A stretch of 59,022 bases of DNA, taken from a virus (lineage: Duplodnaviria > Caudoviricetes). Under the pieces are notes generated by a model. That model saw only the letters and a list, made by a program, of their open reading frames with translations, ran no database searches and had not been told where the DNA came from. The first letter of the stretch is position 1, and every line of letters begins with the position of its first letter. This document shows positions 18,048 to 58,823 of the stretch, in pieces. A program made the translations under genes and the position numbers. Where the stretch lies: positions 1-59,022 of the IMG/VR virus record IMGVR_UViG_3300037195_000370; one strand, 5' to 3'.

Positions 18048-19106
18048 TTACGCTTCGCGGGTAACGAGACGAGCGAACTTGATCTGCTTCCGCTCGGGAT
18101 ACACGCGATTCCACGAAGAAGCTTCATCAAGATCATCGCCAGCGGTGCCAGTATTCGCGGGACCACCATCGCCAGCGGTGCCGACCCATGCGTGACCAGT
18201 CGGGTGAATCGTCCACATAACGCGCGAGTAGAGCACGTCTTGACCACCACCATTACCACCGCCCGGCTTGCGATCAACTTCGGTGGCGACGGGAGGAGTG
18301 CCAACACCAAATTGAGTCGCACCAGAGCCGAAGATCCAGGTGTCATACACCGAACCAGTTCGCGGCAGACCATCGTCAACGATAACTTCACGGCCAAGGA
18401 AGGTCGGGATGGTGATTTCCCCACGAGCATCCGGAATGAAGTCGATCAGGTTGTTCTTCTGCATCCGGTTGTAGACGACAGAGTGAACAGCCACAGCGAC
18501 AAGATCCTCTTGGGAATCACCCATCGTCTGAGCAGCGTCGAGGAACGCTTCGGCAGAGAAGTTGGTCACGCCATCGACGAAGCTTGCGCCCGAGATATCG
18601 TTGACATAATCTCCCGAGTCGTTGAGAGTATTGTCAGCGATAACACCGTTCCAAGTTGCGATGAAAGCTGCTTGGAGACGACGAGCCCAATACGAAGCAA
18701 CACGATTCGCGATTGCTTGCATCGGATCAGCGCCAGCAAGAATCGCAGCAAGGTCACTCGAAGACCAGGAGTTGTTGCGATTCAGTCGAACGGCGATTTC
18801 TTTCTGGGTCAGAATCTTCCGCGGGTCGGGCGGTCGAGCCACACCAGCCGGAAGAGAAGCGTCAGCATCTGCAAACGGAACCGAGGTATCAGTCGATACG
18901 CGATCTTCGTCGTTGTCGAGATCACGGAACGAAGGAACCTGGAAAGTGATGCCACCACCAGAGAGAAGATTGTCAAGAGCTTCGGAGCGAGCAAGCAGAC
19001 CAGATTGAACAAGTCGGCTCTTTTCTTCCGTAAGAACTTGAGTGTAGGGAGTAAAGACTTCGGGGACAACGAGGTCGCTCACCCGAGTCGTAGGTCCTGC
19101 TGCCAT
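18048..19106 (-). CDS. Major capsid protein
   Basis: TRVSDLVVPEVFTPY, EKSRLVQSG, GADPMQAIANRV and WNRVYPERKQI motifs of YuA-like coat proteins. Confidence 0.93.
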   Translation of the reverse strand: MAAGPTTRVSDLVVPEVFTPYTQVLTEEKSRLVQSGLLARSEALDNLLSGGGITFQVPSFRDLDNDEDRVSTDTSVPFADADASLPAGVARPPDPRKILTQKEIAVRLNRNNSWSSSDLAAILAGADPMQAIANRVASYWARRLQAAFIATWNGVIADNTLNDSGDYVNDISGASFVDGVTNFSAEAFLDAAQTMGDSQEDLVAVAVHSVVYNRMQKNNLIDFIPDARGEITIPTFLGREVIVDDGLPRTGSVYDTWIFGSGATQFGVGTPPVATEVDRKPGGGNGGGQDVLYSRVMWTIHPTGHAWVGTAGDGGPANTGTAGDDLDEASSWNRVYPERKQIKFARLVTREA

Positions 19107-21756: not shown

Positions 21757-23289
21757 TCAAAAATGACCAGTCACGGCTCCAGATGACGCCGGAGCTTGAA
21801 CCCAACGGACCAGATAGCGAGTTTCGTCTGCAATATGGTCTTCGGCGTCACTATTTACGTCGTCCATATTCTTCTCGTCTCGAGGAAGCACTGGAACTGT
21901 CTCAAAGAACCACTTACACGACTCACAAACGAACAATCCGGGCCTCTCGCGAGGATAAAGAAGAGTCTCTCCATTGACGACTTTTTTATTCGGATGAGCA
22001 TTTTTCATTCTTTGACGCATCTGATTCCATCCAGTCGCCCTAGAACCCGGTCTTTTGTCTGCTGGCATCCACTTGATTCCAGGATAGCGAAAACCGTCGT
22101 CTAAACGAATCTTCACTTTCATGTCAGTCGCAATACAATTGCCATTTTCAGCCGCAAAAATCTGTGAATCTGCTACTCCAGTCTTCACGCGACACCAATT
22201 ATCACCCAAGCGCCTCCATCCCCACTCTAATTCACGCTTGACGATTCCTTCGGCAATTTCAACCGCGAGTAAATCCAAACCTTCGTTTGGCTTTCCTGTG
22301 CATCCATACCATTCCTTGACTCTGAACACATCTCCGCGAACAGTCGATTTCCAACTCCCGTCGGGGAGCTGGAAGTCACATCCATCAGAGATAGCCCACC
22401 ATCCAACAGAGAAAGGCTTGCTCGCGCCCCAGTCAAAAGATCTAACTATTTTCCACGATTCAGGGATTTCAAAGTCTGGAACCACATTATACTGTGGATC
22501 CCAAACATCGTCAAACATGCCTCCGGAGACGATATCCCAAGAACCTTCCAGCCAAGCCTTCTTCTCCGCTTCATTTCGCGCCGCAGCGGCGATCTTCTGC
22601 TTATAATCCGGATCAGCTTCGAGCAGAGCCTTGTTCTCATCAATATGGCTCATGATCGACAAACGAGGAGGTTCTTTCATCCCATTTTCATCAACGAGAT
22701 CCTTTTGAACCACCATGTTCAACAAATGAGGCTTGAATCTAAATTTCACCCAATTGTGCCCAGGACCATATGGGTTCGTTGTCGACCTGACCATGCGCGG
22801 CATTCCCTTCTGGGAACTCCGACAGCACGACATCATCCTCTTATATCCCTCTTCAGTCGACCAGTTGCAAAGCTCTTCCCAGCCGATCCACGGATACTCG
22901 TGTCCGTGATAATTCCAATAGTCGTCAGGTTTTTGAAACTGGCGAAGCAGAAGCTGCTCCCCCGTCGGCCAAGTCCACACATGCTCCGAATGATTGAATT
23001 TCGCATCCGGCCAAATCTGCGGGAACCATTTCTTCGTCTTCGTGATGACGTCCGTTAGCTGCTTATACGTTTGACGAAAGAGAATGCCTTTCCAGGCAGC
23101 GCCGAAACCCTTTCCAACGTGCATCCCAAAAGACATGAGCAGGCAATCAGTCTTGCCTCCTCCTCGGGTGCCGTGGAATAATACCTCAAAGATAGGCGTG
23201 GATGAAAGGAAGGCCTCTTGCGAGCCTTTCATCGGCCTCCAAATTACATTACTGGGAAATTTTGTATTCATTACAAAGACAGCATTCAA
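21757..23289 (-). CDS. terL: Terminase large subunit
   Basis: Walker A GTRGGGKT, WIGWEEL, TTNPYGPGH, RSFDWG and EDHIADETRY nuclease motif; start may be 23271. Confidence 0.95.
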   Translation of the reverse strand: MNAVFVMNTKFPSNVIWRPMKGSQEAFLSSTPIFEVLFHGTRGGGKTDCLLMSFGMHVGKGFGAAWKGILFRQTYKQLTDVITKTKKWFPQIWPDAKFNHSEHVWTWPTGEQLLLRQFQKPDDYWNYHGHEYPWIGWEELCNWSTEEGYKRMMSCCRSSQKGMPRMVRSTTNPYGPGHNWVKFRFKPHLLNMVVQKDLVDENGMKEPPRLSIMSHIDENKALLEADPDYKQKIAAAARNEAEKKAWLEGSWDIVSGGMFDDVWDPQYNVVPDFEIPESWKIVRSFDWGASKPFSVGWWAISDGCDFQLPDGSWKSTVRGDVFRVKEWYGCTGKPNEGLDLLAVEIAEGIVKRELEWGWRRLGDNWCRVKTGVADSQIFAAENGNCIATDMKVKIRLDDGFRYPGIKWMPADKRPGSRATGWNQMRQRMKNAHPNKKVVNGETLLYPRERPGLFVCESCKWFFETVPVLPRDEKNMDDVNSDAEDHIADETRYLVRWVQAPASSGAVTGHF

Positions 23290-23476
23290 ACTCGGGGGAA
23301 TCTTCGTGAATCGCCATGTAATCCCAATCAGGGCACAAGTGAGCCTTTTTCTTACCCTGCTTATGATAATGCTTGAGAAGAACTTCTTCGTGATCTAAGT
23401 TTTCTGACCAGTTCACGATATGTTCCTTCATATTGACACCTATAGCGAGAAGTTCTTTATGACTATCATGTGGCAC
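23249..23476 (-). CDS. Hypothetical small Cys/His protein
   Basis: HLCPDWD...ECCLC; start is probably 23431 (MKEH). Confidence 0.6.
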   Translation of the reverse strand: MPHDSHKELLAIGVNMKEHIVNWSENLDHEEVLLKHYHKQGKKKAHLCPDWDYMAIHEDSPEFECCLCNEYKISQ

Positions 23477-23594
23477 ATTATCATACGACGATATGCAATA
23501 AAAGCATCACATGTTGTGATCCTAATAAGTCCAGTTTTCTTTTCTATTTTGGTCCAGGTTGATTGTTAGATGGGGTTGGTCGAGCCCCGGCCTG

Positions 23595-23630
23595 CCGCCC
23601 CCAGACGGCCTTTGCCGTGCTTGGGGGCGG
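23595..23630 (-). terminator. GC-rich hairpin closing the TC/GA-free operon
   Basis: CCGCCCCCA...ACGGC-CTTT-GCCGT...TGGGGGCGG, just past the peptide stop; no clear U tail. Confidence 0.45.
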
Positions 23631-23640
23631 GTGTAGTGGC

Positions 23641-23745
23641 CTAGTGCAGCGTGGCTAGCGCGGCCACGGTAGCAACTACCTTGGGCCACGCCATAAGCGC
23701 GGCGGTGGCAACGGCGGCAATTGGCAAAAGCGTATGCATGTGCAT
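23641..23745 (-). CDS. 34-aa hydrophobic peptide
   Basis: MHMHTLLPIAAVATAALMAWPKVVATVAALATLH; has the same CAACACAAGGGGTTT leader/SD as the upstream gene. Confidence 0.6.
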   Translation of the reverse strand: MHMHTLLPIAAVATAALMAWPKVVATVAALATLH

Positions 23746-23806
23746 TGGGCAAACCCCTTGTGTTGGTGGCGGTGGCGCGCGCCGTGTAGCGCGCGCCGTG
23801 GCGGTG

Positions 23807-24175
23807 TTAGCTGCCCTGCACGGGCACAAGGTAGGTTTGCGTAACGGGCCAGCGGGCGTGGGCCATGCAATTGCCGTTGGGCTTTTGGGCGGTGCCAAAG
23901 CCCGCGCTGGGCGCGCGCCCGCCGCTTTGCACCCATGCGTTAAGGCCGCTGGCAAGCGCGGTGGCGTATTGCTGCACGGTAAACCCGCCCTTGTGTTGGG
24001 CGTTAAGTTGGGCGGCAACTTTGTAAAGGTAGCAACGTATGCTATTGCCGCTTTTGTGCTTGGCGGGCCAAGTGGGCGCAAGCTGGTAGCGCGTGGCGGT
24101 GGCCTTTACGGGCGCGGGCGCAGCGGCCTTGGCCTTGGCTTTGGTGTTGGTGTTGGCCTTGGTGTTGGTAGCCAT
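23807..24175 (-). CDS. 122-aa basic protein without Asp/Glu, putative immediate-early factor
   Basis: MATNTKANT...PVQGS; AAGGGG SD; directly downstream of a promoter. Confidence 0.8.
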   Translation of the reverse strand: MATNTKANTNTKAKAKAAAPAPVKATATRYQLAPTWPAKHKSGNSIRCYLYKVAAQLNAQHKGGFTVQQYATALASGLNAWVQSGGRAPSAGFGTAQKPNGNCMAHARWPVTQTYLVPVQGS

Positions 24176-24230
24176 TTTTAAACCCCTTGTGTTGTGTTGG
24201 TGGCGGGCACCATTGCCCGGCCATGTGCTT

Positions 24231-24259
24231 AATGTAGCACCTGGCATGGGGCAAAACAA
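24231..24259 (-). promoter_or_regulatory. sigma70 promoter of the TC/GA-free operon
   Basis: TTGTTT-N17-TACATT with extended -10 TG. Confidence 0.65.
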
Positions 24260-24310
24260 GGGCCAAAGTTGGGCATTTTTGGGGCAAAAATGTGGCGAAA
24301 ATGTGGCGAG

Positions 24311-24420
24311 CGGACCGGAGCGGACCGGAGCGGAGCGGAAAATGAAGAAGAAGATCGGATAGACTCACTCGGTCAAAATCGCTCACTCGGTCAATCGGAC
24401 TCGGTCACTCGGTCAAAATC
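24311..24420 (+). repeat. CGGA(CC)GGAG tandem and (CT)CACTCGGTCA repeats
   Basis: Copies at 24364, 24382, 24399 (partial) and 24405. Confidence 0.85.
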
Positions 24421-24566
24421 TGTCTTCGTTTTCTTCCGCTTGTCGCTCATCAAATGTGGAAAATGAAGATGAAGAAGATTCGTTCGGAGAAGAAAGAAGA
24501 CGAACACACACAGGCTGTCTCGAAAATGAAGATGAAGAAGAAGATTCGTTCTAGTAAGTCAAGGCC

Positions 24567-24767
24567 CTAGAGGACCTTGACCAGCTTGGCATTTCCGAGA
24601 GGACCATCGAGAGAGGAGATACCCTCGAAGAAGTTCTTCTGCTGAAGTCTCTCAACCTCGTTCCTGTGGCGAGGAGGGAGGAATCTGCAGAGCTGACTGA
24701 AGGAAACATCGACGACTTCGATGTGACCATCGTGATACTTGATTCTGACGCGGTAGAGTTCGGACAT
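24567..24767 (-). CDS. Hypothetical early protein
   Basis: GGAGG SD and its own promoter cassette. Confidence 0.75.
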   Translation of the reverse strand: MSELYRVRIKYHDGHIEVVDVSFSQLCRFLPPRHRNEVERLQQKNFFEGISSLDGPLGNAKLVKVL

Positions 24768-24829
24768 GGTAGCCTCCTTGGGTTGCCCTATGCTTGCAAG
24801 GTAACAAGCTGCGATTTAGAATGCAACTC
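24765..24829 (-). promoter_or_regulatory. Promoter-RBS cassette, copy 1
   Basis: TTGCAT-N17-TACCTT ... GGAGGCTACCATG; near-identical to 25325-25393. Confidence 0.75.
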
Positions 24830-24900
24830 TTATTTATCACTGGTTAGACGGAAGTCTTCTTCCAGGTCTTCATTATCCTCATCTTTATCTTCATCCTCGG

Positions 24901-24957
24901 ATTATCTCAATCGGTCATTATCTCAATCGGTCATCCTCAGATTATCTCAATCGGTCA
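24901..24957 (+). repeat. ATTATCTCAATCGGTC x3
   Basis: Units start at 24901, 24917 and 24941; variant of CTCACTCGGTCA. Confidence 0.9.
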
Positions 24958-24989
24958 ACGAAGAAGAAGAAGATGATATCCAGCCCAAG

Positions 24990-25020
24990 GAGAAAGGGCG
25001 AGCCTATCCGAGACTCGCCC
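24990..25020 (-). terminator. Rho-independent terminator
   Basis: GGGCGAGTCT-CGGAT-AGGCTCGCCC-TTTCT after the 25027 ORF. Confidence 0.65.
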
Positions 25021-25026
25021 CCTATC

Positions 25027-25200
25027 TCAGCGAACGTAGATGCTGGGAATCTCAGCACCGAGATTGTTGAACGGCGACTTATTGCGCCGGAATCCAGCGC
25101 CTTGGGCCACGCGAGCCGGACAGACTGTGATCTCGCCACCGTTTTCCAGATACTCGGCAACAACCTTGTTGATGAATTCACGAAGTTCAGACTTGGACAT
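25027..25200 (-). CDS. Hypothetical early protein
   Basis: Start MSKSELREF with GGAGG SD; EYLENGGEITVCP motif common in small phage proteins. Confidence 0.75.
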   Translation of the reverse strand: MSKSELREFINKVVAEYLENGGEITVCPARVAQGAGFRRNKSPFNNLGAEIPSIYVR

Positions 25201-25324
25201 GGTAGCCTCCTTACATGCTGTGAATCCTGAGTATCCAGCGGTAAAAACCAAACCGCCTCTCAGGGCTCACCTTCTTTCCTTCAAGAAGTATAAGCGCCCG
25301 GAGTTGTGGATCTCGCAGCTTTGA

Positions 25325-25393
25325 CATGGTAGCCTCCTTGGGTTGCCCCCCCCATGCTTGCAAGGTAACAAGCTGCGATTTAGATTACAACTC
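25325..25393 (-). promoter_or_regulatory. Promoter-RBS cassette, copy 2
   Basis: TTGTAA-N17-TACCTT ... GGAGGCTACCATG, leading only to a 15-aa ORF. Confidence 0.75.
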
Positions 25394-25448
25394 CTTTTTA
25401 TCTCCATCTTTATCCGGGGAAGAAGAAGATGAAGAATTATCCCCCCAC

Positions 25449-25476
25449 AAAAGGATCGGCGCCGCAGCGCCAATCC
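25449..25476 (-). terminator. Rho-independent terminator
   Basis: GGATTGGCGC-TGCG-GCGCCGATCC-TTTT. Confidence 0.7.
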
Positions 25477-25486
25477 CCATTATCTA

Positions 25487-25831
25487 TTAGGCCAAGCCCA
25501 TTGCCCACCGCATGACGTTGTAGGTAAAGTCTTCAAGCGGGAAAGTGTAGAGGGGCACACCAAGCTCTTCAACATTGTAGCCCTGCTCTTCACAATCCCA
25601 CATATTCACCGTTCTTCCGTCTTCGGCAAGGCTGTAGTAAACACCGACGCCGCTGTTAAACGGATCGGCGCCCCACGCCTGATAAATAAGACGGTTGCCA
25701 GTATCGGGCACAATTTGCGGCGCGCTGGGCGGCCCCTCTTCGGTGGGCACCAGCAAGCAAAGGTTTGCAGCCGCAACGAAGAGTTGCATGGCCTGCTTGC
25801 CGTAAATCGTGTTAATAATGCGTTTATCCAT
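25487..25831 (-). CDS. Hypothetical early protein
   Basis: Start MDKRII (AAGGG SD); upstream TTTTCT-N17-TAGGCT promoter and a downstream terminator. Confidence 0.75.
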   Translation of the reverse strand: MDKRIINTIYGKQAMQLFVAAANLCLLVPTEEGPPSAPQIVPDTGNRLIYQAWGADPFNSGVGVYYSLAEDGRTVNMWDCEEQGYNVEELGVPLYTFPLEDFTYNVMRWAMGLA

Positions 25832-25992
25832 GGCGGTAGCCCTTTCTGTGTTGCCCCACATATACAGCCTAACCCAAGGAAGTTTAGAAGAAAACTCCTA
25901 TTTCTCTCTCTTTTTCTTCGCGTCTTCGTTTTCTTCAATAGAGATGAAGAAGAAGATGAAGATGAGGAAGATCCGACCGACGATCGGACAAA

Positions 25993-26042
25993 CTCACTCG
26001 GTCAATCTTCATCTTCTTCGGACGGACTCACTCGGTCAATCT
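25993..26042 (+). repeat. CTCACTCGGTCAATCT x2
   Basis: Copies at 25993 and 26027, overlapping the TerS 3' end. Confidence 0.85.
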
Positions 26043-26658
26043 GGAGTTGATCCTCGCTCGGCGTTACGTCCTTCATCCTCTTGAACTTAGTTTCCCAATC
26101 CTCGATTGAATCAACTTCGGCTGGCGCGAGAAGAACGCCGCCTGAATGCTTGTGAGAGATCTCCTGTTTTTCTCGGTATCCCTGATCGTGCTTCTTCAGT
26201 TCTAGCTCGATGAGTCGGATTGGGTAGATTGTCTCTTCGGAGACGAGGTTGCCGTTGCGATCATAGCTCTTCTTAATCGTCCCATTGAACACGAGATCTT
26301 GGTGATGCCCAATGAGCTTATCCTTGTATTCCTCCTCAGCGATAAGCAGTGCCTCGGCGAAATCCTCGTCTTTATCGATGTGCGCGCGAACGCACTGAGT
26401 CGATACTCCAGCGGCGGCTGCCGCTTCTCCCATGCGACCCCATTTCCGGTAGACTTCTAGAAAGATCCCCTTTTCTTTATCTCCGAACTTTATCCGGGAC
26501 ATTTTTATCCGACGTCGCCACTCTTTGAGTTCGTCATCCCACTCTTCGACCACCACAGGCTTGGATCCTCTGGTGAGCAACGAGCGCGGACGAGTCCGGA
26601 CATTGTTGCGATCGTAAGTATCTTCGTTGTAGTCGTTGGTCATCATTCTCACCTGCAT
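26002..26658 (-). CDS. Terminase small subunit
   Basis: HTH-like GRMGEAAAAAGVS...DEDFAEAL; C-terminal YREKQEISHKHSGGVL...EDWE; start is likely 26646. Confidence 0.7.
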   Translation of the reverse strand: MQVRMMTNDYNEDTYDRNNVRTRPRSLLTRGSKPVVVEEWDDELKEWRRRIKMSRIKFGDKEKGIFLEVYRKWGRMGEAAAAAGVSTQCVRAHIDKDEDFAEALLIAEEEYKDKLIGHHQDLVFNGTIKKSYDRNGNLVSEETIYPIRLIELELKKHDQGYREKQEISHKHSGGVLLAPAEVDSIEDWETKFKRMKDVTPSEDQLQIDRVSPSEEDED

Positions 26659-40918: not shown

Positions 40919-41641
40919 TCACCCTCCGATCTTGATGTAGGTTGCCAGTGTCTGCCACAAGCTCTCGTTGTGGAGCCGGGGCGGAACTTCTGCTTCGAAT
41001 CCATTGTTCAGCATCATGTCGTGCAGGTCTTGGGCTTTCTTCAAGCCGAACCCGTTGATGTGGATTTCCAGCGCGACTTGACGCAGATCAGGATACGCAG
41101 CGATCAGCGTCTCCATGAACTCGAACTCCGCACCCTCGCAATCGATCTTAGCGACGTCGATCACCGGATGCTTGTTCTTCAGAGTGGCGACCGACATGAA
41201 GCTGATCGACACTTCCACCCGGCCACGTCGCGGCGTCGTGCTGGAATTACCGGGATTCTTGCCTGTTTTGCTGAGATACAGCACACCGTCACCGTCCTGG
41301 CTCGAAGTCAACGCCTTGTTGTGAAGTGTAGTATTCTCTTCATCTTTCATGTTCAGCGAAAGCATGTTGAAGTTGTTTACTTCCGGCTCCAGCGAAATGA
41401 CGTGCATCGCACCTTTGTCCACAGCCCAGCGGGTGAAGCAGCCGATGTTCGCGCCGATGTCTAGCACGACCCTTCCTTCCACGTCCAGCTTGCCATAGCT
41501 GCGATTGATCTCTTTTGAGACATATTCATCATAGGTGTTGTTTCTACACCAGATAGGCTGTGTGAAACCTTTTGATGTCACTTGATACAGTGAACGTTCT
41601 TCGAACTCACCATCAACAAGGACTCCGTATTGTTCAGACAT
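40919..41641 (-). CDS. FkbM-family SAM-dependent methyltransferase
   Basis: VLDIGANIG, SLEP and KIDCEGAE motifs. Confidence 0.9.
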   Translation of the reverse strand: MSEQYGVLVDGEFEERSLYQVTSKGFTQPIWCRNNTYDEYVSKEINRSYGKLDVEGRVVLDIGANIGCFTRWAVDKGAMHVISLEPEVNNFNMLSLNMKDEENTTLHNKALTSSQDGDGVLYLSKTGKNPGNSSTTPRRGRVEVSISFMSVATLKNKHPVIDVAKIDCEGAEFEFMETLIAAYPDLRQVALEIHINGFGLKKAQDLHDMMLNNGFEAEVPPRLHNESLWQTLATYIKIGG

Positions 41642-42083: not shown

Positions 42084-44124
42084 CTTCTGTATCGACTCTG
42101 AAGGGCACCCAGAGCTTGCCTGGATACGCGTCGATGATACAGTCTCTCATGATGTTGCCAGCTTCTTTCGCTTCGGCAACAGTAGAATAGCTTCCGTTAG
42201 TATCGTCATGAACCTGCAACTGGATGAAATGCCCAGCACGATCAAGTTCACAGATAGCAAGCTTTGTCTGGTCAGCAGATGAGCCTTGGATTACACGATT
42301 GAGAGCTTTGTGTGTGAAATCGTAAGATCCATCTTCACGACGTTCAAAGTTGAGCCTTCTACCGAGAATAGTTTTTACGAAACCGATAGCTTTAGCTCTT
42401 TCAGTAGCTGCTTTCGCAAGTTCTCGGACATATGGAACTTCGCTATCAAAATTGTCTAAGATCTCTTGTCCTTCTTCACCAGCCATTTCTCGCACGAAGC
42501 CTTTCTGGATTTCCATGCGATAAGACATGGCCTCTCTTTGGGTTTCGAAGAACTCCATCCTGCGATCTTTACCCCATCCATAGGTCACAGCCCAACGAGT
42601 AGGCTTACCGATGTCGCGGCATAGCTTGGCTCCACCTTCACCATAACACAACCCAAGAAAGATGTTCTTGGAGTAACCACGGTGAACCTTGTAGGCTCCT
42701 TTCGGATCATTCTTGAACCACTCATCTACCTGCTTATCACCATAGACCAGCCGGGTCATCATGTCGTGGTTATCTGTGCTGGGATCGTTCTGATATCTCA
42801 GAGCTGCTTCTCTTGCTCTGGGCAAATCCAAAACCGCAGCAAAATGAGTTGTCCATCTTGGTTCTTGCTGCGAATAGTCATTACAGCCCCACAGAGCGTC
42901 TTCCTCAGGGATAAAGATCTTGCGCCACTCGCCAGCAATTTCAGGGTCTCTATCAGGACTAGGCTGCTGCTGAAGGTTCGGATCAGCAGCGGACAGTCTT
43001 CCGAATCGGACACCAACAGTGTCACCGGAGGAGTCAGACATCGCCATTTGCCTAAATGAGCAATGAAGTCTTTCTCCAACAGCATACTTTCTGATAGAAG
43101 CCGCAAATGTCGTTCGTAGTTTGTTGACTTTTCTGGCTCTGAGGATTGCTTGCGGGACGACATGATCACTACCTCCTAGCAAATCTCTATCGATTGATGG
43201 GGCACCAGTTGCAGTCTTAGGCAGCCTCATACCGATAGCTTCTAAAGCAGGAGCAAGAGCACCGGGCTTCCACACTTCCCCAAATCCAATTTGGACGCCG
43301 GTCTCTCGTTTGATCAAGTCAAGAGCCTTACGTTCCTCAGACTCAGCCCACTTTTCAATCCGTTCTAGTTTATCAAAATCAATCCTGACGCCACGCCGTC
43401 TCATTCTAACTAGAACTGGTATAACTCTGCTTTCTAGTTCCCAGATTTGTTGTAGCCCATCTCTTTCAATTATCTCTTCTTGTCTTTTTAAGATCTCTAG
43501 GGGAGATGCTACATCCTGCTCCCCATATTTTCCGACATACCGCCCCGGTAGTCTCCAGAGACCCTTCTTTGGATCAAGACCGAAAGCTCTCGCAGCTTCC
43601 AAAAGTGTGGATTCGTCTTTAGCCTCGATACCATATCGTTTTCCAATTGCATCAAGGGAGTAGCTTCGATGAAGTTCGTAGATGAGGGGGTCAGCAATTT
43701 GAATGTCGCGGAACTTCGCATCTTGGTTCCATTCAAATCCATCGTTGTATCCATAATCAATATCGTAGGCGAGGTTGGCTCCCACGAACTCTCGATCAAA
43801 TCCTTTAATTTGTTCTCTAAGGTATCGGAGAACCATTTCGCAGTCGAGGTTATCGCCTCCTTCATGGCGGATCGGGAGATAGTGTCTAGGACCTCCTTCA
43901 ATGGCAAATGACCATCCGACAGTATATCCGTCGCGAAGAGATCCAGGTCCCAACTTCGCACCAATACTCGGGTCTCTGGTTTCGGCATCAATCGCAATCC
44001 TTTTAGCGTCCTTCCACGATGGAAGGTCAGAAAGTGACGGTGGACGCCACTCCGCCTCAGGCATAAAGAACCCAAGCTGGAGAGCGCCACCGTTATTCGG
44101 GTCTGATTTCTTTCGTGCTGCCAT
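42046..44124 (-). CDS. polA: DNA polymerase, family A, with 3'-5' exonuclease
   Basis: IDAET, DYSQQEPR, KNIFLGLCYG, IQGSSADQ and VHDD; start re-called at MAARKK. Confidence 0.95.
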   Translation of the reverse strand: MAARKKSDPNNGGALQLGFFMPEAEWRPPSLSDLPSWKDAKRIAIDAETRDPSIGAKLGPGSLRDGYTVGWSFAIEGGPRHYLPIRHEGGDNLDCEMVLRYLREQIKGFDREFVGANLAYDIDYGYNDGFEWNQDAKFRDIQIADPLIYELHRSYSLDAIGKRYGIEAKDESTLLEAARAFGLDPKKGLWRLPGRYVGKYGEQDVASPLEILKRQEEIIERDGLQQIWELESRVIPVLVRMRRRGVRIDFDKLERIEKWAESEERKALDLIKRETGVQIGFGEVWKPGALAPALEAIGMRLPKTATGAPSIDRDLLGGSDHVVPQAILRARKVNKLRTTFAASIRKYAVGERLHCSFRQMAMSDSSGDTVGVRFGRLSAADPNLQQQPSPDRDPEIAGEWRKIFIPEEDALWGCNDYSQQEPRWTTHFAAVLDLPRAREAALRYQNDPSTDNHDMMTRLVYGDKQVDEWFKNDPKGAYKVHRGYSKNIFLGLCYGEGGAKLCRDIGKPTRWAVTYGWGKDRRMEFFETQREAMSYRMEIQKGFVREMAGEEGQEILDNFDSEVPYVRELAKAATERAKAIGFVKTILGRRLNFERREDGSYDFTHKALNRVIQGSSADQTKLAICELDRAGHFIQLQVHDDTNGSYSTVAEAKEAGNIMRDCIIDAYPGKLWVPFRVDTEVGPSWGEIKSVE

Positions 44125-44600
44125 CAGGCGTATTCTCCACAACCACGACCCGTCTTGCTGCTGTCGGTCGGCGAGGTGAAATCCTGCCACGACACCCAGC
44201 CCTTCGGACACTGGAAGCCCCAGTCCCGAACCTTCGGCCCGGTAGCGAACAGCGAGATCGCACGCTGACCGGGGATCACCTCCAGACGATGCAGGTCGGT
44301 AGGCTTGCGGTGAACGATATCACCAGCCTTCCGCTCAAACACACCTTCCGGCGTATGTTCAATATAGCCGCCGGACAGAAGGAGCGACGTGTTCTCCCAC
44401 GGATGGTCGTGCATGGCACGGTCGTCGTCGCTCTTGCGAATGTCGTGGAGATACAGGTTGTAGAGTTGGTTTCTCGGGATGACCCACCACCGGAGCAAGT
44501 AGTGGTCGCCGATAATGAAGTCCGGATCACGGCCTGCCATCAGGTCTTCTGCCCAAGCAGCCATGTCCTCAAGGGATGCGTGACCGAGATCAAGGCTCAT
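44124..44600 (-). CDS. Cupin-like protein
   Basis: YLH...DDDRAMHDHPW...GGYIE...LHRLE metal-binding cupin pattern. Confidence 0.7.
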   Translation of the reverse strand: MSLDLGHASLEDMAAWAEDLMAGRDPDFIIGDHYLLRWWVIPRNQLYNLYLHDIRKSDDDRAMHDHPWENTSLLLSGGYIEHTPEGVFERKAGDIVHRKPTDLHRLEVIPGQRAISLFATGPKVRDWGFQCPKGWVSWQDFTSPTDSSKTGRGCGEYA

Positions 44601-45253: not shown

Positions 45254-45840
45254 GATACATCTCCCAGATCCGGCATAAAGGACCAGTCATGATTGGAGCT
45301 TTCCCAATAAGTATCCAAGATCTTAGGGTGAAACTTCTCACCGTTTTTCTTGATATACTTATGAATACGATCAAGCATGACTTCAAGATTACGATTTCCA
45401 ATATGGATTTGATCTCGGCAGAATAGCGCAAGCTCTAAGATATCGAGACCGTGAAGCCACTTTTTCTCAATTTCGTTGAGAGCAGAACCGTGATCATAAT
45501 TGATGGTATCAATCAAAATGTCACTCTCAAGATCTGATAAACTCTCACTGTCAATTAAATTCAGCCATTTGGCAGGAGCGGGAATATCACCAGTCAGCCT
45601 TTCTGGAATATCATGCTCAATGATAGCCCAAACGAGAAACAGGCTCGCTTCTGGCCAAAGGACTCTCAGCATTGAAAGCATGTTGAACTTGTGAATAGCC
45701 AAGTTGTATTCACCAACGATAGGAATAGTGTGACAGCGACGAACTGCACCTGCCTCCCTCATGAATTTGATTTTCTCAATCGAACTCACAGCATGTTCAT
45801 AAGTCTTCATTTGCTTCTCCTGATCAGCCATTCCACACAA
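45250..45840 (-). CDS. HD-domain 5'-deoxynucleotidase (YfbR-like)
   Basis: VRRCHT, AIH, HDIPERLTGDIPAPAK and LDILE. Confidence 0.85.
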   Translation of the reverse strand: MCGMADQEKQMKTYEHAVSSIEKIKFMREAGAVRRCHTIPIVGEYNLAIHKFNMLSMLRVLWPEASLFLVWAIIEHDIPERLTGDIPAPAKWLNLIDSESLSDLESDILIDTINYDHGSALNEIEKKWLHGLDILELALFCRDQIHIGNRNLEVMLDRIHKYIKKNGEKFHPKILDTYWESSNHDWSFMPDLGDVS

Positions 45841-46826
45841 GCTTTCCTCCAGTCTTCAGCAGCGATCTTCTCTGCCAACTTCAGCGCATTTTCTGCATGA
45901 TTAGGGTTCTCGCGATCTTTCCATGCCATCCAAGATTGAAACATTGGTGAAGCAACTTTCTTGAAGAACACATCTTTGAAGCCCATTACTGGACCAACTT
46001 CCATGAACATTTCTAGATCTTGGAACCATTCGTCAATAGGTGAGTTCACAACTTTAAAAGGTCTTACGTTTCCAAGAGAATAGTCATCGAACCCAGGACT
46101 GATTTTGAGTAGATCGGAATGCTTCTTCAGTATGTTGTGATAGGCATGGAAATTCGTGCTTACCTGCCAATATCTCCCGATTGGAACTCCGACCCAAGCC
46201 GCCATCACCTCTTGGAGCATGGAAAAGTGAACTGCATTCGCACCATAGGCACCCCAGATCATATCGTTTGATCTGTTGAATACCGTCATGTCCAGAAAGT
46301 TGTATGGACTGATGCGAAATGTCGCGATCAAGTTGCAGGGGAAGTCTTTTCCTTCCATTCCGAGATCTGCAGAAGTATCCCACATTTGCAACACGACTCG
46401 TCTGTCGTCAGGGTTCATTTTGAGAAGTGAAGCAATCGTAGTGAGCTGATCAACGACGACATCCTTATATTGATAATCTCCTATGGCTGGAGAAAACCAG
46501 TTTCTCCAACGATAACCGTAGGCCCCATGAAACGTGACGCCGTCATCGCTGTAGTTCATTATGTTCGTGGAAAACTGGCTGATCCACTCTACATCTCGTC
46601 TGCCAGATAGCATCCACAAACTTTCCATGAAATGGAAGTATGGATTAGCATCCCTTTCTGGGAAGAACACCACCCTTTCTTCGGGTTCTTGATAAACAGT
46701 TGTCACAGGTTCTGGGAATACCCGAACCATACCATTTCGTGAGTCACGGTCCACACCTTCTTCTTGCAGAGCATTAAGCCCAAGAAGGAGAGCTTCGTTC
46801 ACATTGCGCGCAGATATGACTTTCAT
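45807..46826 (-). CDS. dUMP hydroxymethylase (thymidylate synthase superfamily)
   Basis: RDANPYFH, DFPCN catalytic Cys and RSNDMIWGAYGANAVHFS; Asn at the specificity position indicates dUMP. Confidence 0.88.
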   Translation of the reverse strand: MKVISARNVNEALLLGLNALQEEGVDRDSRNGMVRVFPEPVTTVYQEPEERVVFFPERDANPYFHFMESLWMLSGRRDVEWISQFSTNIMNYSDDGVTFHGAYGYRWRNWFSPAIGDYQYKDVVVDQLTTIASLLKMNPDDRRVVLQMWDTSADLGMEGKDFPCNLIATFRISPYNFLDMTVFNRSNDMIWGAYGANAVHFSMLQEVMAAWVGVPIGRYWQVSTNFHAYHNILKKHSDLLKISPGFDDYSLGNVRPFKVVNSPIDEWFQDLEMFMEVGPVMGFKDVFFKKVASPMFQSWMAWKDRENPNHAENALKLAEKIAAEDWRKACVEWLIRRSK

Positions 46827-48106
46827 ACCAGAATTCCATAGTGATTGAACATTAGATCGTCGAACTTTTCATAGAGATTGGGATCAACAGCACCAGTCTC
46901 TGTTTGGACGTCGCCATTAGCGAGATTGATAACCCTGTTCGCAACTGCTTTCCGGTCGAACTGGATCAAAATATCACGGGCTGCGTCCTGGAAATTACGA
47001 GCCTGCATTGCAGACATATGGCTCGTCTCGAGAATGATGTCAGCGTAGTCCTGTGCATCAAGGGCATCATCGAGAGGAACGTAGTGCTCGTCCGGCTTGA
47101 ACAGGGTAGTCCCCATGCCTCGCTTGTGTGCAACAGGGATAGCGCCTCGGATCATTGCATCAACCGCCACTCGATTCCAGTGACCACCGATCTTACTGTA
47201 TTTCTTGGACCAGCTTGGGTCAACAAGAACGCGAGCCATTTGCAGCCATTCGTCCACGTCTTGGGTCGGCCAGTAGTCGTGATGAGTCATTCCGTTCTCT
47301 AAGGCAACTTCCCAGATCCTGCGAGTATGAAATGGCTTTTCTGGATCATCGTGGAAATAGGCAGGCTTGCACTTTTCCTCACTCGTCATGTATTGATATT
47401 CAATACCCTTACCAGCGATCTCGCGAAGTTCACCCGGCATCCTTGGTGGCATGTAGGCGATTGACCGAACAAGCTCGTGAACATGCTTCCAAGCCTTGAA
47501 AGTCTGCATGTTCACAAAGCCAGAATACTTATCTTCCCATGAAGTAAATTCGCGAATAGGATTGAACTGAGGGTTCACAACCAATGCTCGCGGAATGGGA
47601 AAGATTACAGCAGAATTGAGCGCACATTCATGAACACATGCAAGCCCAGAGAGATGTTCAGCAACATGATAGAGATGCAGAGCATTGCTCTTAGCATTGC
47701 CATCGTGAATGAAAGCAACCTGCTTGACTCTGGGCTCAAGATCATAAAGCTCGGGCCATTTGTCATTTCCGAGATGCTGTCTGTTTTTCGGTGGAACCGG
47801 AACCGTCCAGATGACAATATCGTAATGATTCAAGATATGCTTGGCATTCGCCAAACCAGCAGAAGTCTTATAGGAGAGACGCGCATGTTTGGGAAAGTTC
47901 CAGCCCTTTCCCTGAGCGAACGGAATTCCGCTTGGTCCTCGTTCGAAATTGCCAGATCGCTCCTGAGCTTGGGCATTATCGGCATAGACAAGTTCATAGA
48001 GATGAGCCTCGTGACCAAGATCAAGGAAGCCGCCAATCAACTGTTCAGTATGATTGATGATACCACCAAGATCCATGCACGAATGCAGCGCAACAGCTAT
48101 TTTCAT
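46823..48106 (-). CDS. GT-B (GT4-like) glycosyltransferase, putative DNA-modifying
   Basis: N-terminal LGGIINHTEQL...LGHEA; C-terminal VLVDPS...VDAMIRGAIPV; start MKIAVAL; overlaps the hydroxymethylase start. Confidence 0.8.
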   Translation of the reverse strand: MKIAVALHSCMDLGGIINHTEQLIGGFLDLGHEAHLYELVYADNAQAQERSGNFERGPSGIPFAQGKGWNFPKHARLSYKTSAGLANAKHILNHYDIVIWTVPVPPKNRQHLGNDKWPELYDLEPRVKQVAFIHDGNAKSNALHLYHVAEHLSGLACVHECALNSAVIFPIPRALVVNPQFNPIREFTSWEDKYSGFVNMQTFKAWKHVHELVRSIAYMPPRMPGELREIAGKGIEYQYMTSEEKCKPAYFHDDPEKPFHTRRIWEVALENGMTHHDYWPTQDVDEWLQMARVLVDPSWSKKYSKIGGHWNRVAVDAMIRGAIPVAHKRGMGTTLFKPDEHYVPLDDALDAQDYADIILETSHMSAMQARNFQDAARDILIQFDRKAVANRVINLANGDVQTETGAVDPNLYEKFDDLMFNHYGILV

Positions 48107-48140
48107 GATGAGCTCCAGGGTAAGCAGTATGCCCCACCAT

Positions 48141-48169
48141 AGCGGCAGGACATACAAAAGACAATTATC
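48141..48169 (-). promoter_or_regulatory. sigma70-like promoter for the GT-hydroxymethylase operon
   Basis: TTGTCT-N17-TATGGT; coordinates approximate. Confidence 0.55.
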
Positions 48170-48424
48170 GTTTTGTCTTGTGTGCTCCTTTTATTATCGA
48201 GTAAACGATAATTATCGGAAGGAGCGGACCGATCATTAGAAAAGAGAGAAGAGCGACTAGCCAGTGCATCTTGGGCTTCAAACCGGCTCTAACTTGACGA
48301 TTATACCATTCTAGAAAGAACGCGAAAACCGCAAGCCAGTAGATCGTTATCCAGAAAACCCATGAATTAAATTCGAACACGATACTTGCTCCTCGGTTTT
48401 CCTTGCCCAAGACGAACACGTTCA
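48165..48424 (-). CDS. Small membrane protein (start uncertain)
   Basis: Two TM helices (WVFWITIYWLAVFAFF; LVALLSFLMIGPLLPIIIVY); no in-frame ATG next to the upstream stop. Confidence 0.45.
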
Positions 48425-49251
48425 TATTTGTCGAACTCACAAAGACCGAATTGAATGTCTGTGGGTGACAAAGTGAAATCGTGTTCAAAGAAAGCTTCTT
48501 GCATCTTTGTCATCTCCATGATTAGATCGAAAGCTTTCTGATTCTTCACAGGCTTGGCTTCGTCGTCTCCGAGAATACGGGCTGCTCCTCGCAATGCTCC
48601 TGGACCGATAGGGGTCCACTCGTTCCAGTCCTTTGGCAAGGATTTATTGTCGTAATACTTGTATGACCAGAAACCAGTGTAGGTCGTATCCAAAAGGATC
48701 TCTTTGGTCATGAATCCCGTGCCGCCAAAGCCTTGGATTTTCATCATCCGCTTGGCGACCTGTTCCCATGACTGAGTTGTCTGTGCCAGCTTTACGATCT
48801 CCGGCGTCGCTTGCCACAAAGCCTTGAGAAAGTGATGGACCACCACTTCTTGTTTCGGAGCAGAGATACCTTGATTTGTGATGACATACGCGCCCGTGAA
48901 TACTCTTTCACGATTTTCTAGCCTTTCAGCAGCTACTTCTTCTATGTAATTGAAACAGAAGTTATCATAGTCATGCCACCCAATAGCATTTGCGAATTCC
49001 CAGGTTCCGAAATACCTGAAAGTCGCACAATTCATGAGTATGGAACGACGGTCATCATGATATTTTGGCGTGTAGAATAGTTCCCTCAGCTTCATGCTTG
49101 TTCGATCGTGTTCTCGACGAACATTGGTGAATTTATAGGTCTGGAGAATAGGATCTTCAGTCCACGGAAAAGAATCGCCCGCCTCCTTTCGAAGGCGGAC
49201 GTTCTCACGTTCGTTCAGGTAATCGAAGAACGCATTCACGCGATTAAGCAT
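48367..49251 (-). CDS. aGPT-Pplase1 family protein (alpha-glutamyl/putrescinyl thymine pyrophosphorylase clade 1)
   Basis: ERENVR...PWTEDPILQTYKFTNVRREHDR, FTGAY, GPGALRG and LCEFDKYER. Confidence 0.88.
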   Translation of the reverse strand: MLNRVNAFFDYLNERENVRLRKEAGDSFPWTEDPILQTYKFTNVRREHDRTSMKLRELFYTPKYHDDRRSILMNCATFRYFGTWEFANAIGWHDYDNFCFNYIEEVAAERLENRERVFTGAYVITNQGISAPKQEVVVHHFLKALWQATPEIVKLAQTTQSWEQVAKRMMKIQGFGGTGFMTKEILLDTTYTGFWSYKYYDNKSLPKDWNEWTPIGPGALRGAARILGDDEAKPVKNQKAFDLIMEMTKMQEAFFEHDFTLSPTDIQFGLCEFDKYERVRLGQGKPRSKYRVRI

Positions 49252-55147: not shown

Positions 55148-56613
55148 TCCTTCATATCATCACCTAGTATCTCTACTGATACCTGTTTCTTATTCCTCAA
55201 ATTAGTAACGATATGATTATCAATATCAAGATCACTCATAATATCGATGTAATTCACTGGATGCTCATCCATTCCTCCGCGATGAGCCCTGTCCTCAGAT
55301 TGAAGACGATCAATAAGTTTGAAACTGTTGCTGTAATATACGACAGTCTTAGCTTGAGTCAGAGTGAGACCCGACCCTCCCTTTTGGGCGTTCCCGACGA
55401 ACCATTTATACTCACCTCTTTGAAATGCCAGTTTATTTCTCTCTGCTGTATCATCATCGACAGCACCATCATAGCGACAAGCTTTGTCGCCCAGCATTTT
55501 CATTATCTGATCAATGTCGTGTCTGAACCTTGCCCAAATGATGCCCTGACCATGCGTCTCGGAGTCGATTTGATCTAAGACGGCCAGCCTTGGGTTTTTC
55601 TCTGAGAACATGTGAACAGGCTCGTCTTCACCTGTCGGAACATAGTTGCAAGAGATTTGCTGCAATCGCAGAAGCATCACGATAGGCAGTTCAGCGGTGA
55701 TCATAGAATCACCGATTTCAATCATCATCTCTTCTTTTATAGTTTCGTATGCAGACCTCATTTCACGCGAAGCTTCGAAGTATCGTTTCTGGTATAGCTT
55801 CGGAGGCAGATCAAGAACCTCATCTTTCACAACGCGATCTGAGATCTCACTCAACCATTCTGAAAGCTTATCAAGATTTTGATATTCAATCAGTTTGTCA
55901 TAGCCTGGATCATAGCCGTGTAGTCTCTGACAATCAGCACGAGTGAACCATCGCCCAAAGAAGTTGCGAAATTCAACTGATCCATGAATGCCTTTGTTCT
56001 TCCAGAAGAACTCGTCAAGAAATCTGATCTGGCTGTAAAGATCAAATGGACCGACAGAGATTGGAGTTCCGGTCAAGATTCTTTTATATTTCGCATAACG
56101 ACCAGCAGCTATGAGACTTTTCGTTCTCTTCGCATTGGGCGTCTTGATGTTGTGGGCTTCATCAAGAACCATCAGAGTTTTTCTGCTTTTGAGAAATTTC
56201 CAGCAGAGTTCTTTACCTTCTTTAGTCATGAAGGCATTGTAGCTAATCAGCAAAATAGACAGGCCGTCGTGAGGGAACAGGCTTTGCATGGCTCGCTTGT
56301 GCGCCTGAGTTCCCTTCTTGGCTGTCCTGAATACTTGAACGATAGTATCAAGAGCGATGTCTGGTGGAATGTGCTTTGGGATTTCGTCAGTATTCCAGTT
56401 TCGTTCAACTCCCGGAGGAGCAACGACAATCATACCGTCAATCTCGCCGGCCTGATAAAGAATAGCGGCTGTGTCAATAATCGGCTTCGTCTTTGCCGTC
56501 CCTTGTTCCCACAACAGCCCCCAAGACTTGCGAGTGAGATTATTCTCTAGGTGCTTCCTCTGATGCTGAAACGGTTTTACTTGATGTTCGTAGTTATTGA
56601 GTATATCTAACAT
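55138..56613 (-). CDS. SNF2-like SF2 helicase
   Basis: EQGTAKT, DEAH, LTGTP, GLTLT and QSEDRAHR. Confidence 0.92.
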   Translation of the reverse strand: MLDILNNYEHQVKPFQHQRKHLENNLTRKSWGLLWEQGTAKTKPIIDTAAILYQAGEIDGMIVVAPPGVERNWNTDEIPKHIPPDIALDTIVQVFRTAKKGTQAHKRAMQSLFPHDGLSILLISYNAFMTKEGKELCWKFLKSRKTLMVLDEAHNIKTPNAKRTKSLIAAGRYAKYKRILTGTPISVGPFDLYSQIRFLDEFFWKNKGIHGSVEFRNFFGRWFTRADCQRLHGYDPGYDKLIEYQNLDKLSEWLSEISDRVVKDEVLDLPPKLYQKRYFEASREMRSAYETIKEEMMIEIGDSMITAELPIVMLLRLQQISCNYVPTGEDEPVHMFSEKNPRLAVLDQIDSETHGQGIIWARFRHDIDQIMKMLGDKACRYDGAVDDDTAERNKLAFQRGEYKWFVGNAQKGGSGLTLTQAKTVVYYSNSFKLIDRLQSEDRAHRGGMDEHPVNYIDIMSDLDIDNHIVTNLRNKKQVSVEILGDDMKEWI

Positions 56614-58603: not shown

Positions 58604-58823
58604 TGATAACGAAAGTTATGAGAGAACCTATGATCCCGAGAATGATAACCCAAACTATGCGAAGAAGATATCCTTTGACTTCGTTCACACTTTCTTTCAG
58701 TTCGTCAAATCTTTGGTCCATGTGTTTGTCACGTTCTTTCCTTACAGCAGCATCGGTTGTTTGGGTATTTCTCCACTCTTCGAGAGATTTTACCCTTATT
58801 TCAAGATTTTGAAGATCAGTCAT
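58578..58823 (-). CDS. Small coiled-coil plus C-terminal TM protein (holin-like)
   Basis: Start MTDLQNL overlaps the o-spanin stop. Confidence 0.55.
   Translation of the reverse strand: MTDLQNLEIRVKSLEEWRNTQTTDAAVRKERDKHMDQRFDELKESVNEVKGYLLRIVWVIILGIIGSLITFVISGGLNVGI

Follow-up and report, generated by a model that had tools for sequence, protein, structure and literature searches.

The virus record IMGVR_UViG_3300037195_000370 (Duplodnaviria; Caudoviricetes), which was analyzed over its whole length of 59,022 nt and is called the window here, contains an island delimited by the absence of the dinucleotide GA and its complement TC (GA/TC), and a gene of this island encodes a protein of 122 amino acid residues, P0001, which has neither aspartic nor glutamic acid. 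The best explanation, to which we give a probability of about 0.6, is that this transcribed gene heads a self-contained unit kept GA/TC-free, and unmarked, in a clade of phages that hypermodify their DNA from 5-hydroxymethyldeoxyuridine (5-hmdU). The source is a whole virus record with a completeness of 97% (the record's own estimate), and almost all of its genes are on the minus strand.

After the island, the longest GA/TC-free gap in the whole 59,022-nt genome is 67 nt. GA plus TC account for 16.0% of the genome dinucleotides, every 1-kb bin outside the island holds between 130 and 184 of them, and genome-wide GA/TC is the most over-represented dinucleotide, with an observed/expected ratio of 1.28. 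The trinucleotides missing from the island are exactly the 16 that contain GA or TC. In 20,000 mononucleotide shuffles of the island, GA/TC shows a mean of 77.7 ± 6.9 and a minimum of 53, with 0 observed, and at the genome-wide frequency the absence of GA/TC from the island has a log10 P of -52.6; chance is therefore excluded as its origin. An assembly artifact was also rejected: five DNA runs from three studies, which may include the source sample, hold 0.99 of the sampled words of the stretch, and it is carried as well by RNA contigs and by 16 related loci. No match to the island was found in Rfam, and blastn of positions 23400-24500 against 50,697 GenBank phage records also gave no match. 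The 6-bp palindromes without GA/TC show a density of 20.2 per kb in the island and 3.6 per kb elsewhere. The only ATGCAT of the genome sits in the island, together with half of its GCGCGC and CGCGCG sites.

P0001 contains 10 Lys and 4 Arg, and has a pI of 10.4 and a net charge of about +14. Asp and Glu make up 13.5% of the phage proteome (12,904 codons), so that the probability of finding neither in 122 residues is 2e-8. All six Ser codons of the gene are AGC, whereas phage-wide TCN is used in 570 of the 812 Ser codons; furthermore, GA is not the ending of any Arg or Gly codon, nor TC that of any Phe, Leu, Ile or Val codon. The original prediction, made from the letters of the sequence, described a protein constrained by its DNA that lacks acidic residues and uses only AGY for Ser, given that GAN and TCN codons cannot occur in the island. 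The translation (122 residues and a stop codon, with 0 Asp and 0 Glu) agrees with this description, whose wording was incomplete: the rule also bars codons with GA or TC at their end, as well as xxG-Axx and xxT-Cxx at the junctions between codons.

Synonymous resampling of the P0001 coding sequence (CDS) with phage codon usage (20,000 draws) gave on average 28.6 GA/TC and never fewer than 13, with 0 observed. The second open reading frame (ORF) of the island, which encodes the hydrophobic peptide P0002, shows a mean of 6.4 and also 0 observed, a value reached by a fraction of 0.00035 of the draws, and the non-coding parts of the island likewise lack GA/TC. As synonymous sites, codon junctions and non-coding DNA all follow the rule, the constraint acts on the DNA and not only on the protein. 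Selection at the protein level for an acid-free, extremely basic product, with the DNA pattern as a secondary effect, would fit the charge and pI of P0001 and the lack of Asp and Glu in eight of 12 database representatives; however, it is already contradicted by the resampling, the charge-neutral TCN codons of Ser are missing together with the acidic ones, the hydrophobic second ORF obeys the same rule, and homologues with 2, 5 and 23 acidic residues keep the core motifs. We consider its probability close to negligible.

A phmmer search with P0001 against 1.84 billion representatives found 14 matches at E ≤ 0.001. Furthermore, a family hidden Markov model applied to the six-frame ORFs of 80 loci, retrieved via the large terminase (TerL), found members in 16 loci, all of them on the TerL strand and with ATG starts and AAGG-type ribosome-binding sites; three of these loci (L005, L006 and L007) encode an identical family protein. 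The homologues in 16 loci and the coverage by RNA contigs show that the ORF, as the original prediction had supposed, is a real, transcribed gene. Alignment of 20 members, with 26-63% identity to P0001, shows ten invariant columns and the core W-P...R-x-Y...G-F-T...P. A long antisense ORF, 23651..24181 (+), was rejected, as it is the minus strand that holds the conserved frame with its start and ribosome-binding site; its length is explained by the loss of TGA and TCA stops in G+C-rich DNA. The word-index protein search with P0001 returned only the query itself, and tblastn of P0001 and P0009, one of its homologues, against the 50,697 GenBank phage records gave no match. The family is known only from uncultured marine and environmental phages and is a new small protein family.

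The DNA-level rule is conserved along with the gene. In all 16 family-bearing loci, a gap without GA/TC, 164-721 nt long, lies over the gene. Among the family-free loci with at least 3 kb upstream of terL (n=26), a gap of at least 150 nt was found in four (L036, L042, L048 and L073), and the other 22 show gaps of at most 89 nt. The CDS of 14 relatives contain 0-11 GA/TC, compared to 25-32 expected by synonymous resampling, with no draw as low. In the six complete genomes G000-G005 there is exactly one family gene, located in each case at the longest GA/TC-free stretch of the genome. In G002-G005 the strictly GA/TC-free part is limited to the promoter-proximal 160-300 nt.

Asp and Glu are absent from 12 of 15 clade copies (window counted) and from eight of the 12 database representatives P0003-P0014. 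The acid-bearing homologues P0009 (23 Asp plus Glu in 177 residues), P0006 (five) and P0005 (two) retain the core motifs, and at core position 69 these three proteins have Glu, while 13 of 16 acid-free members have Gln. The fold thus tolerates acidic residues, and the absence of Asp and Glu, like the exclusive use of AGC for Ser, is a by-product of the DNA-level rule and not a requirement of the protein; resampling and acid-bearing homologues agree on this point, which the original prediction had anticipated. No genomic locus of P0009 or P0006 was confirmed in scans of viral contigs or of metagenome contigs.

Other GA/TC-poor or GA/TC-free stretches were observed in relatives. A GA/TC-poor island is present in G008 and the sister subclade L040-L044; its promoter and leader are similar, but its cargo is an unrelated ORF of 99-115 residues (L042 4427-5123; L044 112-596; G008 60.8-61.6 kb and 1-330). 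These islands are flanked by long tandem repeats and, in G008, the island is inverted relative to terL. The ORF of the L042 island was rejected as a family member, with an hhalign probability of 0.2, and is taken to be unrelated cargo. In addition, GA/TC-free stretches of about 155-200 nt with GGGCA-type repeats (72-76% G+C) and no family gene are found in L036 (4628-4817), L048 (3210-3399), L073 (3085-3291) and G007 (58771-58929, a 158-nt repeat that is the only such feature of this genome). These stretches may represent a relic of the island or a version of it that is non-coding.

To relate GA/TC to a modification of the DNA, the observed counts of 6-bp palindromes with and without GA/TC were compared to their Markov expectation in nine genomes (G000-G008) whose terL is at least 70% identical. 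Palindromes containing GA/TC are at expectation in the nine genomes, with mean log2 observed/expected (o/e) values of -0.28 to +0.01 in G000-G005, while those without GA/TC are depleted about 2-fold (-0.96 to -1.76 in G000-G005). The difference in mean log2 o/e ranges between +0.72 and +1.77, and the Mann-Whitney U p values of the nine individual genomes lie between 7e-6 and 9e-3. In the window, AGATCT occurs 38 times (39.9 expected) and GATATC 39 times (39.7 expected), whereas CAGCTG and GTAC are absent, with 13.8 and 95.6 expected, respectively, which is a strong avoidance of sites without GA/TC. GA/TC has the largest positive effect among the ten dinucleotide classes in all six genomes that were compared for all ten, and the footprint survives G+C content as a covariate (t 2.0-4.2). 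The 4-bp palindromes, only two of which contain GA/TC, show no significant contrast, and the kinase-less relatives G010 and G013 show no signal.

Pseudomonas phage M6 (L107 and L108) was used as a control, and here the spared dinucleotide is CA/TG (+3.2, p 6e-6); G009 is also of the TG type (CA/TG +1.57, p 0.01). PMC6449724 reports TG activity for the M6 kinase, so that the footprint recovers the TG context from sequence. TG and/or TC are the contexts of thymidine hypermodification given in PMC6449724, PMC13458397 and PMC8989533. The sparing of GA/TC palindromes and the depletion of the others, an indirect genomic footprint found in nine of nine genomes (G000-G008), point to TC/GA as the context of hypermodification in the clade, with the island as the one unmarked stretch, and TC is most likely the marked context.

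The genome contains candidate genes for a mark of this kind (Table 1). The kinase belongs to the 5-hmdU DNA kinase family and is proposed to write the context-specific mark on thymidine; homologues were found in 5/5, 4/5 and 2/5 relatives in the three sets searched. The thymidylate-synthase homologue, which scores 68 against an NCBIfam equivalog cut-off of 327, as fits a divergent paralogue, is the expected source of 5-hydroxymethyl-dUMP. The glycosyltransferase adjoining the kinase is modeled with a GT-B fold; its Foldseek matches include PimA (E 3.5e-12) and, among the top matches, T4 alpha-glucosyltransferase-DNA complexes (E 1.7e-11), while in Pfam it matches GT1 with 22 bits, under the 26.4 cut-off. 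The enzyme may add a sugar to the thymidine-derived base. Other products of the genome are a dCTP-deaminase-like protein, a ribonucleotide reductase, a family-A polymerase, a primase-helicase and a ligase.

The original prediction had asked whether homologues of P0001 co-occur with the glycosyltransferase, and a homologue of this enzyme adjoins the kinase in all six genomes with the family gene. It is present in G001-G005, G008 and the window, so that 7/7 genomes whose island bears a gene have it, while G006, G007, G009 and G012 lack it; it was thus seen only in relatives with a gene-bearing island. M6 and G009 have neither the family gene nor the island. The finding named in advance as contrary to the prediction, phages with the same glycosyltransferase whose homologues have normal Asp and Glu, was not encountered, and P0005, P0006 and P0009 are not placed in any genome.

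Two genes near the modification genes, 44124-44600 (-), which matches the PHROG family phrog_4786 (annotation "cysteine dioxygenase"), and 40919-41641 (-), an FkbM-type methyltransferase (PF05050), may belong to the modification pathway. An HNH endonuclease gene (PF13392) is found at 56607-57062 (-).

The palindrome footprint cannot separate TC from GA, and is equally compatible with a mark on the purine side, on the G or A of 5'-GA-3', such as the dPreQ0 of Pseudomonas phage iggy, under which the same logic of the cassette would apply. There is a precedent, as PMC10484667 describes a strict GA motif for the DpdA of iggy, with >97% of the GA sites modified. However, no match to the transglycosylase family PF01702 was found in the genome at E ≤ 1, whereas 14 of 14 control genomes match it (a distant DpdA could escape the Pfam model), and the genome encodes instead the 5-hmdU DNA kinase, the thymidylate-synthase homologue and the dCTP-deaminase-like protein. 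A purine mark is in our judgment improbable.

According to the pathway in PMC8989533, all thymines are 5-hydroxymethyluracil (5-hmU) after replication. As this includes the thymines of the island, it would differ from the rest of the genome only in mature DNA, either incoming or just before packaging. If TC/GA carries a protective mark, ordinary DNA would be confined to the cassette in the mature genome. On an incoming marked genome, the host RNA polymerase would read the cassette at full rate, and enzymes that read or cut the mark would not see it.

The gene is covered by exact-match RNA contigs of three metatranscriptome runs, all belonging to one study (23722-24224, 23730-24164, 23810-23963 and 24040-24209), one of these contigs ending at 24224, near the candidate promoter. 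Further matches of these runs fall on small genes at 25.0-25.8 kb and on genes in the region 28.2-31 kb. The stretch 17.0-23.7 kb, which encodes the capsid, the portal and TerL, has no RNA contig among the pieces listed; one bin there, 18401-18867, shows a depth of 0.72 in run X8, and a DNA run covers the region at a depth of 0-6. No exact-match piece is deeper than the contigs over the gene, which reach 37.4 in X8 and 9.25 in X9, a measure of depth that cannot rank genes. The gene is therefore transcribed alongside non-structural genes, on data that are weak as to timing; of the immediate-early expression put forward in the original prediction, an early programme is therefore suggested by RNA on non-structural and not on structural genes, while the step to a precise time is weak. 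As the RNA data lean to the non-structural (early) programme, the cassette can be read as an entry-stage unit, and we offer a role at entry as a tentative reason for its purging.

The deep RNA contigs of the gene (with the same limit on depth) and the stable hairpins at both ends of the message would also be expected if the avoidance acted on RNA, with a transcript free of GA and UC that escapes an endoribonuclease and is long-lived. However, the absence of both GA and TC is the signature of a motif in duplex DNA, the island exceeds the RNA contigs by 73 nt on one side and about 118 nt on the other, and the same dinucleotide marks the genome-wide DNA footprint. To our knowledge, no nuclease with GA plus UC specificity can be named, and we hold this alternative to be very improbable.

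The features of the island and of its surroundings are collected in Table 1. The unit is small and self-contained: it is composed of a candidate promoter, a leader, the P0001 gene, a hairpin, the gene of a 34-residue peptide and a terminal hairpin, within and after which GA/TC resumes at the downstream edge of the island. This layout, from promoter to hairpin, is common to six close relatives, and more distant relatives show only the gene and the hairpins.

Table 1. Features of the GA/TC-free cassette, its upstream flank and the candidate modification genes in the window.
Feature	Position	Strand	Details and evidence
GA/TC-free island	23605..24297	n/a	693 nt; 62.5% G+C vs genome 47.4%; unique in genome
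Gene for acid-free basic protein P0001, 122 residues	23807..24175	-	translation, homologues, RNA contigs
Second gene, P0002, 34-residue hydrophobic peptide	23641..23745	-	ORF of 33-34 residues with own ribosome-binding site in 6 related loci
Candidate sigma-70-like promoter	24231..24259	-	read by eye: -35 TTGTTT (24259..24254), 17-nt spacer, -10 TACATT (24236..24231)
Putative 5' leader	24176..24224	-	stem-loop 24201-24223, CA-rich run, Shine-Dalgarno-like AAGGGG 24183-24188
Hairpin just after the stop codon	23774..23797	-	10 G-C pairs; -28 kcal/mol, z -2.4
Strong terminal hairpin	23595..23630	-	no U-tract; -35.5 kcal/mol, z -3.2, 0/200 shuffles as stable
Upstream flank, very GA/TC-dense	24298..24560	n/a	10-nt repeats, GAAGAAGA runs, 3 copies of 13-nt iteron TTGACCGAGTGAG (- strand)
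Divergent thymidylate-synthase homologue	45807..46826	-	PF00303, 81.9 bits vs 24.3 cut-off
GT-B-fold glycosyltransferase (predicted), 444 residues, adjoining kinase	46823..48157	-	model with mean predicted local distance difference test (pLDDT) 70.9; Foldseek
5-hmdU DNA kinase	48367..49251	-	PF18723, 134.6 bits vs cut-off 25; residues 5-282 on profile 4-277 of 281

Upstream of 15 of 15 family genes, a similarly placed TTTACA or TTGnnn (for example TTGGCT), N17 and TAnnnT were found; the canonical -35 hexamer contains GA and so cannot occur in the island. The last 22 nt of the leader are repeated before the second ORF (repeats D9 and D17). The stem-loop of the leader has a stability of -14.3 kcal/mol, no better than shuffles (z -0.2). 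Most leaders of the family genes (16 cassettes) show a hairpin-like block, GGCC/GGGC ... AAYAAC-type loop ... GGCC/GCCC, and a CA-rich run before the ribosome-binding site; RNAalifold on the 16 leaders found no consensus structure, and the stem register varies between sequences. At the position following the stop codon, relatives also have hairpins, of differing sequence.

The island is located between terS (26002..26658, phrog_4044) and terL. The iteron TTGACCGAGTGAG, allowing at most two mismatches, has eight sites in 24364-26039 and two elsewhere, the latter with two mismatches each, and 100 shuffles gave a mean of 1.87 sites and never as many as 10. The eight sites fall into three clusters, each preceding a small gene unit in the region from terS to terL; the clusters are accompanied by GAAGAAGA/TCTTCTTC runs and by an inverted repeat of 15 bp (25949-25963 / 26005-26019). 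They could be operator, pac or boundary elements.

Several small genes are found next to the island. Those starting at 24767 and 25327 (-) have a nearly identical upstream block of about 80 nt (24763-24838 / 25323-25402; repeats D6 and D7, 91-100% identity), which spans the ribosome-binding site and the start. The small protein encoded at 25027-25251 (-) matches the SutA RNA-polymerase-binding domain below the threshold (PF20661, E 5e-5, 23 bits vs 29.3 cut-off); a similar ORF is located between terS and the island in L016 (3593-3829), and look-alikes, identified by eye, lie inside the L049 and L013 islands on the opposite strand. Between the island and terL there is a conserved, Cys-rich ORF of 75 residues, 23249-23476 (-), with a homologue in L016 (5308-5478) and no family match.

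The location between terS and terL and the number of the iterons, far above shuffles, are also what would be expected if the island were a packaging element, pac or a region recognized or cleaved by the terminase or the HNH endonuclease, that needs unmodified DNA and to which the gene has adapted. This is the main rival explanation. It fits the promoter-proximal location of the strictly GA/TC-free part in G002-G005, the unrelated ORF in the GA/TC-poor island of the sister subclade (L040-L044, G008), and the fact that the island would be distinct once the DNA is mature. However, the two edges of the island fall at the candidate promoter and at the terminal hairpin that bound a transcription unit, the unit is about 6.3 kb from terL in G005 and inverted relative to terL in G008, and no conserved DNA motif was seen inside the islands beyond the leader/promoter region. 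Furthermore, even in the partial cases a weaker depletion spans the whole CDS (5-11 GA/TC vs about 30 expected), and an island of this kind is missing from M6, whose terminase is related. Taken together, a packaging element appears unlikely.

The tertiary structure of P0001 was modeled with AlphaFold2 on a 20-row alignment, with a mean pLDDT of 81, and of about 90 in the core. The model shows a disordered tail rich in Lys, Ala, Thr and Pro (residues 1 to about 27) and a beta-alpha-alpha-alpha-beta, winged-helix-like core (28-120) with strands E29-32 and E116-119 and helices H46-60, H67-83 and H101-112, in keeping with the Lys/Ala-rich N-terminal tail and globular core described in the original prediction. 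The best structural matches in VIA are winged-helix proteins: JetA (8as8_E) with Z 6.5, a root-mean-square deviation of 3.6 and 81 aligned residues, followed by Polycomb-like (Z 5.5), MukF (5.4) and ORC/Cdc6/MCM/FoxP4 (4.5-4.8). VIA matches to PqqD-like recognition elements of ribosomally synthesized and post-translationally modified peptides were also obtained, namely the leader-binding part of TbtB (Z 6.4), MibB (5.2), NisB (4.6) and McbB/MccB/TigE (4.1-4.4), and PqqD rows of the ESM Atlas show template modeling (TM) scores of 0.41-0.46 and no sequence match.

In sequence searches, Pfam gave no family for P0001 at E ≤ 1 and only scattered single matches for the 20 alignment members; PHROGs, NCBIfam and the PDB sequence profile gave no match, so that P0001 belongs to no curated helix-turn-helix or winged-helix family of these four collections. 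The linker-histone globular domain family was not matched in the Pfam scans of P0001 and the alignment members, and BFVD returned only the identical protein A0A516MGD2. According to the model and the basic tail, P0001 is most likely a DNA binder; the nucleic-acid binding proposed beforehand is plausible on these grounds, while the fold matches behind it are weak. The further roles put forward in the original prediction, binding to RNA polymerase, an aid to transcription through modified DNA and a block of host defence, are hypothetical.

Several observations weigh against a unit kept unmarked in a hypermodified genome. The modification of the DNA and its TC site rest on the indirect genomic footprint, and G006 shows the TC footprint yet has neither the island nor the family gene. 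The association with the GT-B enzyme rests on related genomes and not on independent events, which makes it a lead rather than a statistic. RNA contigs also include non-structural genes at 28-31 kb, whose TC density is normal, so that the mark cannot block transcription in general, and it does not explain why this one unit alone is purged. The island is about 5-fold richer in the palindromes that are avoided elsewhere, which is unexplained if its DNA is unmodified; as unmodified and palindrome-rich DNA, it should be the part of the genome most exposed to restriction. The depth of DNA-run contigs is 5.6 over the island and 3-6 over its flanks, with no signature of sequencing bias, contig depth being a poor test for it. 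The RNA contigs give no RNA ends, strand or level, and their runs were found using this stretch. Regarding the cassette, the promoter was read by eye and the hairpins have no U-tracts, and a consensus scan of 23200-24700, at its thresholds, detected neither a promoter nor a minus-strand terminator. Regarding the protein, all fold matches are below Z 8, the value from which matches become specific, and so indicate a common arrangement, and Foldseek of the model against PDB, the check suggested in the original prediction, returned no match at E ≤ 0.001.

A broader extension, which we regard as doubtful, is that a cassette of clean DNA, a unit purged of the modification motif of its own phage, is a general device of hypermodifying phages, with, in this clade, an H1-like reader or shield of marked DNA as its cargo. 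Such a gene would have to stay invisible to the readers of the mark, either modification-dependent nucleases of the host or its own product; the price would be a protein without acidic residues, and the purged dinucleotide would reveal the modification motif by sequence only.

If the gene does head a unit kept GA/TC-free and unmarked, the phage keeps one unit outside its own hypermodification, and the mark would have a cost or a reader at a defined stage of infection, which bears on the transcription of hypermodified genomes and on modification-dependent defences. In addition, the modification context would be readable from sequence, by the spared palindromes and the dinucleotide purged from the island. 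It would also show how far a DNA-level rule can reach into a fold, with a conserved domain devoid of Asp and Glu in which Gln replaces a core Glu.

Context-specific hypermodification and motif avoidance are known kinds of phenomena, and what is new here is the purged unit and the protein family. No account of a gene unit purged of the modification motif of its own phage was found in the main text of the open-access papers searched. The closest systems are the 5-hmdU hypermodifiers (Pseudomonas phage M6, Salmonella phage ViI, Delftia phage PhiW-14 and Acinetobacter phage 15599), with which the window shares the kinase, the thymidylate-synthase homologue and the family-A polymerase. The clade of the window is known from sequence and not, as they are, from base chemistry, and the available parts of their papers mention no motif-free gene unit. 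The gene order of the window is M6-like, and M6 also shows a palindrome footprint, for TG. However, M6 has no dinucleotide-free island, while the window has TC as its probable context and a GT-B enzyme beside the kinase.

Morons are autonomous promoter-gene-terminator units in the structural or packaging modules of phages, described in lambdoid phages and characterized by recent acquisition and expression from the prophage. The unit of the window resembles them in having its own candidate promoter and end hairpins, a G+C content of 62.5% compared to 47.4% in the genome, and a location between terS and terL; furthermore, the cargo varies in the sister clade and either orientation occurs. It differs from morons in that its complete lack of GA/TC is a maintained rule, common to relatives that have diverged to 26% identity. 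No integrase was found among the window ORFs scanned, which were a part of the total.

Linker histones H1/H5 combine a winged-helix globular domain with a tail rich in Lys, Ala and Pro, and TF1 of phage SPO1 is a small basic phage protein with an HU-type fold. P0001 is H1-like in architecture, with one winged-helix-like domain and a disordered Lys/Ala/Pro-rich tail, and TF1-like in being small, basic and from a phage that probably replaces thymine via 5-hmU. However, it has no sequence relation to them according to Pfam, PHROG, NCBIfam and PDB-sequence searches, its tail is N-terminal, and TF1 is not a winged-helix protein.

Finally, the early region of T7 and the first-step-transfer DNA of T5 are examples of restriction-site avoidance in the phage DNA that enters early. 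Like them, the island is a local stretch that may have been shaped by enzymes met at entry, and its expression looks tied to the non-structural programme. In contrast, T7 and T5 avoid the sites of host enzymes, whereas the island of the window purges a dinucleotide that is over-used in the rest of the genome (1.28) and is enriched in ordinary palindromes.

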